Shown here: positions 2,570 through 6,062 of the stretch, one piece after another
Layout of the letters: each line of letters opens with the position of its first letter
How positions within the stretch are numbered: position 1 is the first letter of the stretch
Assembly: GCF_022846255.1 (NCBI RefSeq)
Contig: NZ_AP025682.1
Length of the DNA: 64,000 bases
From: Escherichia coli
Lineage (GTDB): Bacteria > Pseudomonadota > Gammaproteobacteria > Enterobacterales > Enterobacteriaceae
Direction: 5' to 3' (one strand)
Notes under the pieces: generated by a model
The model's input: only the letters and a program-made list of their open reading frames with translations
Databases searched by the model: none
Told to the model about the DNA's origin: nothing
Translations under genes and position numbers: made by a program

Positions 2570-3586
2570 ATGTCCACATTACGCCTGCTCATCTCTGACT
2601 CTTACGACCCGTGGTTTAACCTGGCGGTGGAGGAGTGTATTTTTCGCCAGATGCCCGCCACGCAGCGCGTTCTGTTTCTCTGGCGCAATGCCGACACGGT
2701 AGTGATTGGTCGCGCACAGAACCCGTGGAAAGAGTGTAATACCCGGCGGATGGAAGAAGATAACGTCCGCCTGGCGCGGCGCAGCAGCGGTGGCGGCGCG
2801 GTGTTCCACGATCTCGGTAATACCTGCTTTACCTTTATGGCTGGCAAGCCGGAGTACGATAAAACCATCTCCACGTCGATTGTGCTCAATGCTCTGAACG
2901 CGCTCGGCGTCAGCGCCGAAGCGTCCGGACGTAACGATCTGGTGGTGAAAACCGCCGAAGGCGACCGCAAAGTCTCAGGCTCAGCCTATCGCGAAACCAA
3001 AGATCGCGGCTTCCACCACGGCACCTTGCTACTCAATGCTGACCTTAGCCGTCTGGCAAACTATCTCAACCCGGATAAAAAGAAACTGGCGGCGAAAGGC
3101 ATTACCTCGGTACGTTCCCGCGTGACCAACCTCACCGAATTGCTGCCGGGGATCACCCATGAGCAGGTTTGCGAGGCGATTCGAGAGGCCTTTTTCGCCC
3201 ATTATGGCGAGCGCGTGGAAGCGGAAATCATCTCCCCGGACAAAACGCCAGACCTGCCGAACTTCGCCGAAACCTTTGCCCGTCAGAGTAGCTGGGAATG
3301 GAACTTCGGTCAGGCTCCGGCGTTTTCGCATCTGCTGGATGAACGCTTTACCTGGGGCGGCGTAGAACTGCATTTCGACGTCGAAAAAGGCCATATCACC
3401 CGCGCCCAGGTGTTTACCGACAGCCTCAACCCCGCGCCGCTGGAAGCCCTCGCCGGGCGACTGCAAGGCTGCCTGTACCGCGCAGATATGCTGCAACAGG
3501 AGTGCGAAGCGCTGCTGGTTGACTTCCCGGAACAGGAAAAAGAGCTACGGGAGTTGTCAGCGTGGATGGCAGGGGCGGTAAGGTAA
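2570..3586 (+). CDS. lplA: Lipoate-protein ligase A
   Basis: 338-aa [25 protein letters not shown]..., full-length LplA-like. Confidence 0.95.
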
Positions 3587-3617
3587 CTCGCTGATTAAAA
3601 TATCCAGGGAAGGAAAT

Positions 3618-3881
3618 ATGATCGATCTGGAAAACCAGGAACGGGAGATTATCAATTTAATGTTCAGCCAGGGTATATCCTGGCTAACCGCCGTGCGTAT
3701 CAGGCATAAACTATCACTTGCTGAAGTAAGTAAAATGTTAGGTATCTCCATTAATTCTCTAAAACAGATCGAAAAGACGGAACGGCTTAGTTCAAACATC
3801 AAAAGCAAAATGGCAGGAATTTATGGTTGTCCACCAGAGTTGCTGATATGCCCTTCCTGGATGACTGCTGAACATAAATGA
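3618..3881 (+). CDS. Small XRE-family helix-turn-helix protein (87 aa), hypothetical
   Basis: ORF with GGAAGG RBS 4 nt upstream of ATG; HTH signature LSLAEVSKMLGISINSLKQIEK; clearly lower GC than flanking genes; occupies the position where K-12 has yjjJ. Confidence 0.55.
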   Translation: MIDLENQEREIINLMFSQGISWLTAVRIRHKLSLAEVSKMLGISINSLKQIEKTERLSSNIKSKMAGIYGCPPELLICPSWMTAEHK

Positions 3882-3978
3882 ATAGATTCGTGAATAGATA
3901 CTTGAATGGATTTTATTTTCTATCCATATGAAAAATAATAGTAAATCTATAAATCAGTTGCTATTGATGAATAAATAC

Positions 3979-4010
3979 TAAAAAGCCGGAGCAGTCTCCC
4001 ACTCCGGCTT
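3979..4010 (-). terminator. Rho-independent terminator downstream of deoD
   Basis: 8-bp stem AGCCGGAG/CTCCGGCT with 10-nt loop; A5 run on plus strand gives a U-tract after the hairpin on the minus strand. Confidence 0.7.
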
Positions 4011-4041
4011 CACACGACAATCGCCTTTCAGCAAAACACAA

Positions 4042-4761
4042 TTACTCTTTATCGCCCAGCAGAACGGATTCCAGCGCGATTTTGATCATGTCGTTGAAGG
4101 TGGTCTGACGCTCAGCGGCAGTGGTCTGCTCGTGAGTGCGGATGTGGTCAGACACGGTGCAGATGGTCAGGGCTTTCGCGCCAAATTCTGCAGCGACGCC
4201 GTAGATACCAGCCGCTTCCATTTCCACGCCGAGGATGCCGTATTTTTCCATCACGTCGAACATTTCGCCGTCCGGAGAGTAGAACAGGTCAGCGGAGAAC
4301 AGGTTACCAACGCGAGCATCAACGCCCAGTGCTTTTGCCGCGTCTACCGCGTTACGCACCATGTCGAAGTCAGCGATAGCGGCAAAGTCATGGTCTTTAA
4401 AACGGATGCGGTTAACTTTGGAATCGGTGCAGGCACCCATACCGATAACGACGTCGCGCAGTTTTACGTGCGGCAGAACAGCGCCACAGGAACCAACGCG
4501 GATAATTTTCTTCACGCCGAAATCAGTGATCAGTTCTTTGGTGTAGATGGAGCAGGACGGGATACCCATACCGTGGCCCATTACGGAAATTTTGCGGCCT
4601 TTGTAAGTACCAGTGAAGCCCAGCATACCGCGAACGTTGTTCACTTCACGGGCATCTTCAAGGAAAGTTTCAGCAATATACTTCGCACGCAGCGGGTCGC
4701 CTGGCATCAAAACTACGTCAGCAAAATCGCCCATTTCTGCATTAATGTGTGGAGTAGCCAT
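4042..4761 (-). CDS. deoD: Purine nucleoside phosphorylase DeoD
   Basis: ORF track 4042..4818; start at internal Met ([13 protein letters not shown]) with AAGGAT RBS; 239 aa. Confidence 0.95.

Positions 4762-4817: not shown

Positions 4818-6062
<1,245 letters not shown>

Follow-up and report, generated by a model that had tools for sequence, protein, structure and literature searches.

The protein HipH (YjjJ) has been studied as a persistence or toxin kinase almost entirely in Escherichia coli K-12 and a few uropathogenic E. coli (UPEC) strains. It carries an N-terminal helix-turn-helix (HTH) domain (PMC8262856), and in the work of Gerdes et al. its binding to DNA was only conjectured (PMC8262856), while Zhang et al. 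mapped the regulation of hipH by cyclic di-GMP (c-di-GMP) to the hipH promoter region (PMC11452175). No description of a HipH-family operator was found in the searchable literature. Here we analysed the interval between lplA and deoD, the site of hipH in K-12, in a stretch of 64,000 nucleotides of another E. coli genome (assembly GCF_022846255.1, contig NZ_AP025682.1). This 64-kb stretch is called the window below; its orientation is inverted relative to K-12, and coordinates are positions in it unless a locus number is given. In the window the place of hipH is taken by an open reading frame (ORF) of 87 amino acids, ORF87, which a first-pass annotation of the same DNA had described as a small regulator or antitoxin-like gene replacing yjjJ, or else as the remnant of a larger module.

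Replacement of hipH by ORF87

The lplA-deoD interval (3587-4041) measures 455 bp in the window, in line with the estimate of about 450 bp made at first reading, versus 1498 bp in K-12, where, as stated at first reading, it holds the 443-aa hipH/yjjJ gene abutting the lplA stop. In blastn alignments, homology to K-12 ends at the lplA stop (3585/3586) and resumes at 3873, at the complement of the hipH ATG (position 972 of the K-12 locus, L003). The 286 bp at 3587-3872 stand for the 1329-bp hipH coding sequence of K-12, with no DNA similarity between the two swapped segments at the level of blastn, and the 169 bp at 3873-4041 correspond to the K-12 deoD-hipH intergenic region with 88% identity overall. 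ORF87 and hipH are encoded on opposite strands; ORF87 runs through the old hipH start codon and ends at a TGA with which the first of the sequence boxes described below (box 1) opens. The proposed replacement by a small regulator is thereby given exact junctions: only the codons of hipH, from the second to the stop, were exchanged, and the hipH control region, here termed R, was retained.

A survey of alleles, already envisaged in the first-pass annotation, was carried out on 5426 complete E. coli genomes. The 455-bp interval was present at a coverage of at least 80% in 4036 of them, ORF87 alone in 4073, and the hipH coding sequence in 1348. The last two counts together account for 5421 genomes and are thus nearly exhaustive, which is consistent with alleles that are alternatives to each other. 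In E. coli the ORF87 allele is in the majority (75%), and K-12 has that of the minority; yjjJ does occupy the slot in K-12, but taking K-12 as the norm was misleading, as the ORF87 state is both more common and as old as the genera compared (see below). Since about 75% of the sequenced E. coli are without hipH, conclusions drawn on HipH are not transferable to most strains, O157:H7 included. ORF87 is an already annotated, very common and uncharacterised member of the XRE family: RefSeq names it 'helix-turn-helix domain-containing protein' (WP_000566145.1), and in O157:H7 Sakai it is the 'transcriptional regulator' ECs_5344. Nothing relevant to it was found in the literature under the locus tags ECs5344 and Z5987, nor under yjjJ combined with phylogroup.

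Intact orthologues of 86-87 aa were found directly after lplA in five lineages, namely E. coli, a cryptic Escherichia (L011), Superficieibacter (L023), UBA3516 (L031) and an enterobacterium (L006) with an LplA 89% identical, and the length, start context and stop position of ORF87 are conserved across genera. In pairwise comparisons the ratio of nonsynonymous to synonymous divergence (dN/dS) was 0.15-0.60, about 0.3, versus approximately 0.03 for lplA, and dS between genera was 1.1-2.0 versus 1.0-1.4 for lplA in the same pairs. A dN/dS well below 1 at saturated synonymous sites indicates that ORF87 is under purifying, though relaxed, selection, and the similarity of its dS to that of lplA indicates that the allele has been at this site for as long as the compared genera have been separate. 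A recent horizontal import, suggested by the low G + C content, was ruled out by the same match in dS. The hipH gene shows the same pattern, with saturated dS and a dN/dS of 0.06-0.19, and at region R the divergence between the two E. coli haplotypes is as great as that between genera. An exhaustive HMMER search of 1.84 billion representative proteins yielded 32 matches, nearly all of them Escherichia copies, and the family is almost confined to the lplA-deoD locus. An 87-aa 'homologue' with 71% identity (P0036; L007, L008) shows substitutions that systematically favour L, F, V, W and M; it was rejected as a natural variant, as the contigs found do not translate to the query and it looks like C-to-T-converted reads assembled in Logan.

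The lplA loci of 80 species were then compared. In most, the interval measures 43-105 bp and contains only a hairpin or sequence of the repetitive extragenic palindromic (REP) type. At this site hipH was found in E. albertii, Citrobacter sp. Cu233, Kosakonia pseudosacchari, a Pseudocitrobacter metagenome-assembled genome, Leclercia sp. and Silvania hatchlandensis. None of the loci examined carries both ORF87 and hipH, and a composite ancestor with the two genes in convergent arrangement was rejected on this ground; moreover, a hidden Markov model of the ORF87 family gave no match among 3013 ORFs from 30 hipH loci, with a positive control at 1e-49. Between K-12 (L003) and E. albertii (L013), the dS of hipH is 0.156 and that of lplA 0.389, which hints that the hipH allele moved between the two more recently than their flank.

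Region R and the candidate HipH-family operator

The AT-rich spacer and deoD terminator recognised at first reading are both there, with a G + C content of 0.34-0.40 across 3600-4000 versus 0.56-0.61 in lplA, and the terminator is a GC-rich hairpin (Table 1). This spacer is the hipH control region R, which contains three 12-bp TGAATAGAT boxes in tandem and a further, distal box. As shown by comparison of the alleles, the hipH module consists of the kinase gene and R, in which some 53 bp of spacer separate two or three tandem ATCTATTCA boxes by the start codon from the distal box. The same array precedes the hipH ATG in seven enterobacterial genera and follows ORF87 in four ORF87 lineages; in these four, the ORF87 stop is the TGA of box 1, and the distance from box 3 to the distal box is 63-65 bp in all alleles compared. 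In the window the boxes adjoin the retained complement of the hipH ATG, a mark of the HipH module that belongs to the locus and not to ORF87. The idea of a remnant of a larger module was right in a sense that had not been foreseen, what remains being the intact hipH operator and promoter region.

The boxes and the spacer of R have evolved very differently. Box identity was 0.91 within the ORF87 type, 0.92 within the hipH type and 0.91 when loci of one type were compared with those of the other, and the corresponding values for the spacer were 0.57, 0.52 and 0.47; for the window versus K-12, they were 0.93 for the boxes and 0.43 for the spacer. The boxes are thus under equal constraint in both alleles, and in ORF87 alleles they have been kept without HipH for as long as synonymous sites can measure. 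The box motif has seven matches in the window, four of them within 98 bp of R, and the matches outside this cluster are not above chance. The triple box was found in 5393 of the 5426 E. coli genomes, with one copy in each, and membership in a multi-copy regulon was rejected for these reasons. Apart from decayed remnants, no boxes were found in the empty deoD-lplA intervals of about 55 other species.

Several loci show R in a reduced form. The empty site of E. whittamii (L012 5018-5096) has only TTGATGAAT left, fused to the terminator; in L006 (1120-1160) box 1 is fused to the distal box; and one 12-bp unit was lost in L011 (around 5310-5325). The direct-repeat boxes seem to promote slippage or recombination.

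The spacer of R carries a -10-like TATTAT (3940-3935, minus strand), which is TATAAT in L011, and a conserved TGAAA. The presumed hipH-type promoter in R would now point antisense into ORF87 and lplA. Inverted repeats that might serve as an operator for an XRE dimer were also considered, namely ATGGAT-N10-ATCCAT in the window spacer and the palindrome at 3666-3685, and were rejected as not conserved in other lineages. The latter, a 20-bp near-perfect palindrome (AGCCAGGGTA/TATCCTGGCT) inside ORF87, holds two CCWGG (Dcm) sites, and its ATATCCAGG recurs at 3600-3608, just 5' of the Shine-Dalgarno sequence; its left arm is not conserved in other genera, and it is probably due to chance.

An exact-pattern scan of metagenome and viral contigs for TGAATAGATNNNTGAATAGAT yielded 209 loci; as the search started from the pattern, it has no bearing on how many hipH genes are without boxes. 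Thirty of the 209 encode a HipH homologue (33-95% identity, G + C content 0.43-0.69) with the boxes 0-60 bp 5' of the start, in 2-6 tandem copies with a 12-bp period and many with a distal box, and four further loci are Escherichia-type ORF87 loci. At 26 of the 30 neither lplA nor deoD is present, and the HipH encoded there is 33-48% identical to that of K-12 (G + C content 0.43-0.69). Across unrelated metagenomic bacteria, the hipH homologues with tandem boxes in front of them range from 33 to 59% identity (33-59%). Examples of such distant loci are L098, L101, L115, L122, L123, L125, L141, L151, L158, L165, L175, L187, L198, L200, L204, L208, L217, L226 and L255, among others. As the association between boxes and hipH has outlasted both sequence divergence and change of context, the ATCTATTCA repeats are probably the cognate operator of the HipH family, presumably read by the N-terminal winged helix of HipH, whose recognition helix, SQATFSRL, does not vary between genera. 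The IMG/VR contigs L217, L226, L255 and L298, which are classified as viral, encode HipH homologues of 35% identity accompanied by two tandem boxes; prophages or other mobile elements may therefore carry hipH modules.

Possible roles of ORF87

In the AlphaFold2 (AF2) model of ORF87, with a predicted local distance difference test (pLDDT) score of 89.7, an N-terminal helix (residues 2-18) is followed by a five-helix HTH domain (residues 22-76; helices 22-29, 34-41, 45-54, 59-69 and 73-76). Pfam HTH_3 (PF01381) matches residues 25-76 with an independent E-value of 2.5e-5, and weaker matches were obtained to HTH_25, HTH_19 and HTH_31; Pfam Sigma70_r4 (E 1.7e-5) and PADLOC HTH_VI (E 1e-5) were also found. 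Foldseek assigned a probability of 1.00 to the likeness with CylR2, SinR, P22 c2, 434 Cro and C.BclI. The HTH_3 profile and the five-helix fold place ORF87 in the XRE/Cro-C1 family, in agreement with the XRE-type HTH gene, preceded by a ribosome-binding site, that had been read from the sequence alone. Its ATG lies 32 bp past the last base of the lplA stop, as first noted, and is preceded by AGGGAAGGAAAT. We infer that ORF87 binds DNA as a dimer, like CylR2, SinR and the C-proteins.

The explanation we favour, and to which we give an even chance, is that ORF87 is a functional small XRE-family DNA-binding protein in the cargo position of the hipH module, a repressor co-transcribed with lplA that acts on the orphan hipH operator and promoter. 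Because the scan revealed no terminator-like site between lplA and ORF87, and the gap between the two genes is 9-73 nt across lineages, ORF87 would be translated from read-through lplA transcripts, lplA being the probable upstream source of the message. The spacer at 3587-3617 is conserved in O157 Sakai and in a cryptic-clade Escherichia. The ORF87 dimer would then bind DNA, most likely at the orphaned operator in R, and would in this way govern the leftward hipH-type promoter, which would fire antisense into ORF87 and lplA. As for the protein that reads the boxes in ORF87 alleles, the possibilities are ORF87 itself, a diverged paralogue or host factor, or a different role for the boxes. ORF87, the only DNA-binding protein encoded at the locus, is the leading candidate, and the proposal that it binds the R boxes is put forward tentatively, with less confidence than the general role.

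Several observations weigh against this explanation. XRE dimers usually read inverted repeats, and 12-bp direct repeats suit a winged helix such as the N-terminus of HipH. In L006 ORF87 is intact even though R has collapsed to one degenerate box, so ORF87 is not strictly dependent on R. A consensus scan called no sigma-70 promoter on the minus strand of R. Finally, a diverged trans-acting winged-helix (wHTH) paralogue or a host factor could explain the conservation of the boxes equally well.

The last point leads to the strongest of the rival explanations, which is possible but distinctly less probable than the one we favour: the target of ORF87 would lie elsewhere, in the ytjB-lplA operon or at unlinked genes, and another factor, either of the host or a diverged HipH-like winged-helix protein, would keep the R boxes. 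The persistence of ORF87 in L006, where R is almost gone, fits this explanation well, as do the direct 12-bp repeats, which are better suited to winged-helix proteins than to XRE dimers, and the invariance of SQATFSRL in parallel to that of the boxes. The c-di-GMP response of the hipH promoter region likewise suggests that there are additional inputs (PMC11452175). However, the boxes occur only with hipH or ORF87 as cargo, bar the decayed remnants, and the triple box is single-copy, both of which speak against a general host regulon; furthermore, no second copy of the hipH wHTH-coding region was detected at the DNA level, with the sensitivity of blastn, in the 4073 ORF87-type genomes.

An origin of ORF87 among XRE antitoxins is an unlikely alternative, according to which it is an orphan antitoxin or 'anti-addiction' protein that neutralises HipH-like or other toxins in trans and thereby let hipH be lost. 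The only remote relatives of ORF87 are indeed longer regulators of the phage or toxin-antitoxin type: phrog_7241 matches it with an E-value of 2.1e-9, solely over profile positions 54-121 (the C-terminal 68 of 122), and P0084 (129 aa) matches positions 2-120 of the same profile (E 1e-33), while another distant relative, P0100, shares an operon with a HigB_toxin gene. In addition, overexpression of HipB, an 88-aa XRE protein, rescues YjjJ toxicity (PMC9948734). Against these points, no toxin gene adjoins ORF87 in the five lineages, ORF87 and hipH occur together in no locus examined and their counts in E. coli, added up, do not exceed the number of genomes, and no ORF87-like ORF lies beside the 30 hipH homologues. 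ORF87 is also without the N-terminal extension of phrog_7241, its scores are far below the antitoxin cut-offs of NCBIfam (in bits, NadS 17.2 vs 60, PezA 13.9 vs 290 and RstR 13.4 vs 80), and no HipB chain appears among the PDB sequence matches at E <= 1; the TATCC-N8-GGATA operator was not found in the window with up to one mismatch. The antitoxin-like character suggested in the first-pass annotation was thus not demonstrated.

A related and equally speculative idea is that hipH and ORF87 are two states of an ancient and long-maintained polymorphic switch, in which ORF87, though unrelated to the HipH winged helix, would have evolved to read the same ATCTATTCA operator and to repress hipH-type promoters in trans. 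If this were true, a single operator would be recognised by two different HTH folds, much as with CI and Cro, and three quarters of E. coli strains would carry 'immunity' in place of a persistence toxin.

It is more improbable still that an old rearrangement left ORF87 behind as a reading frame that is decaying or without function, and that it owes its annotation only to being open. Its dN/dS is ten times that of lplA, many truncated variants occur among database clusters, nucleotide diversity within E. coli is high (94.7-100% identity), and the family is nearly confined to one locus, all of which would suit decay. Nevertheless, dN/dS remains well below 1 with synonymous sites saturated, the length of 86-87 aa, start context and stop position are maintained across genera, the fold is predicted with confidence, and in a sample of 60 spread E. 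coli genomes the match covers the full query in 59, in two of these less a single base, and each of the 60 has the gene annotated as a coding sequence.

The weakest explanation, that yjjJ/hipH was disrupted and ORF87 is the N-terminal HTH fragment left of it, which had been named as the finding that would overturn a replacement, is refuted: HipH does have an N-terminal HTH domain (PMC8262856) and hipH alleles truncated to that domain do exist (in E. coli WB61, Phytobacter and Kosakonia), but ORF87 lies on the strand opposite to hipH, the swapped segments share no DNA similarity, BLASTP detected no similarity between ORF87 and HipH (best E 0.2), hhalign gave a probability of 27% over 21 columns for the HipH N-terminal domain, and that domain is of the winged-helix type (DLLLQGP...SQATFSRL...FGKARATRYAL), unlike the five-helix XRE domain of ORF87, which has neither a HipH winged-helix domain nor a HipA_C-type Ser/Thr kinase domain. 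An inverted copy of the hipH 5' end was rejected likewise, given the lack of DNA and protein similarity and the different HTH class. The truncated alleles, genuine remnants of hipH that look different from ORF87, form a third allele type, in which hipH is cut to its N-terminal winged helix (about 50-65 aa), with the boxes kept and the kinase part deleted; they were found at L092 1498-1689 (E. coli WB61), L041 5058-5219 (Phytobacter diazotrophicus) and L053 around 5106-5303 (Kosakonia sp. S29), and RefSeq labels that of WB61 an incomplete 'transcriptional regulator'.

Arrangement of the locus and comparison with known systems

The genes of this part of the window are arranged in the order serB(-), ytjB(+), lplA(+), ORF87(+), deoD(-), deoB, deoA and deoC, and the features of the interval and its flanks are collected in Table 1. 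The deoD hairpin is conserved in K-12, E. albertii and E. whittamii, and it is possible that it also stops the lplA-ORF87 transcripts. No known RNA was found in the interval (no Rfam match at E <= 1).

Table 1. Features of the lplA-deoD interval and its flanks in the window
Feature	Position	Strand	Remarks
lplA (lipoate-protein ligase A)	2570..3586	+	Ends with TAA at 3586; from the ORF listing and the RefSeq annotation of the identical locus
lplA-ORF87 spacer, 31 nt	3587..3617	+	Shine-Dalgarno GGAAGGA; left end of the allele-specific segment 3587-3872
ORF87, 87-aa XRE/Cro-type HTH protein	3618..3881	+	Pfam, AF2 fold, dN/dS, orthologues in five lineages
Retained complement (CAT) of the hipH start codon	3873..3875	-	Right-hand replacement junction, now His86 of ORF87; blastn vs K-12
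Three tandem 12-bp boxes TGAATAGATnnn	3879..3914	+	ATCTATTCA on the hipH sense strand
53-bp spacer of R, rapidly evolving	3915..3967	-	Presumed hipH promoter; alignment across alleles and genera
Distal box TGAATAAAT	3968..3976	+	Begins 65 bp after the start of box 3
GC-rich hairpin, deoD terminator	3982..4011	.	No T-run on the plus strand
deoD (purine nucleoside phosphorylase)	4042..4761	-	Convergent right-hand flank; stop codon begins at 4042

In other Enterobacteriaceae the deoD-lplA junction is an insertion hot spot with further kinds of cargo: fimbrial-like secreted proteins (in Enterobacter cloacae), ORFs resembling REP-associated tyrosine transposases together with REP arrays, a lipoprotein, a membrane protein and a 406-aa secreted protein. 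The sites concerned are L038 5183-5866, L059 5209-5859, L045 5106-5609, L090 5103-5330, L043 5053-5376, L069 5042-5671 and L077 5063-6283. Two loci do not fit the organism under which they are filed. L069 is titled Chryseobacterium sp. 18061, and its enterobacterial LplA and DeoD are 93% and 96% identical to those of E. coli, so that the entry is probably contaminated or mislabelled; L080 (Escherichia sp. ESNIH1) has an LplA only 91% identical and no deoD within 4 kb, unlike true Escherichia. In O157:H7 Sakai, 'lplA' (L091 40028-41716) is annotated as a coding sequence of 563 codons; the ytjB stop codon is changed to Cys, which results in an uninterrupted in-frame ytjB-lplA reading frame.

Beyond the gene itself, three results stand out: the replacement is exact and old, with ORF87 as the majority state; ORF87 lies at a conserved but orphaned candidate operator of HipH; and this operator, defined by comparison, appears to be general for the HipH family. 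Such a candidate operator, conserved without the kinase and beside a different HTH protein, offers a simple experimental route into the regulation of hipH, since ORF87, the HipH N-terminal domain and c-di-GMP are all addressable on the same 100 bp. The locus is also a way to study the replacement of a toxin gene with its neighbours undisturbed.

Among the described systems, HipB of hipBA resembles ORF87 in size (88 aa), in its XRE HTH class and in its connection with the biology of HipA-family kinases, but ORF87 has no co-directional or adjacent kinase, it is flanked by lplA and deoD, and the window is without the TATCC-N8-GGATA operator. The phrog_7241 regulators and HigB-linked XRE antitoxins provide its best profile match, and the AVR/AWR...LS...IEK...YGC motif is common to ORF87, P0084 and P0100; ORF87 differs in that it aligns with their C-terminal part only (68 of 122 positions), lacks a toxin gene beside it and has a fixed place at a housekeeping locus. 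With the small stand-alone XRE regulators (CylR2, the SinR N-domain, the P22 c2 N-domain, C.BclI and the DdrO N-domain), ORF87 shares the five-helix HTH fold, at template modelling (TM) scores of 0.7-0.76 (target-normalised) and root-mean-square deviations of 1.5-2.1 A, CylR2 being the best PDB sequence match (E 1e-5). It differs from them in its extra N-terminal helix and in a conserved C-terminal YGC..ELL.CP.W motif. The closest counterpart of the locus as a whole is the monocistronic hipH module of K-12, with its HipA-family kinase, with which it has in common the slot between deoD and lplA, region R, the deoD terminator and junctions identical to the base; the difference lies in the cargo, which in K-12 is a 443-aa winged-helix kinase transcribed away from R, and in the window an unrelated XRE protein of 87 aa whose transcription comes from the lplA side and runs towards R.

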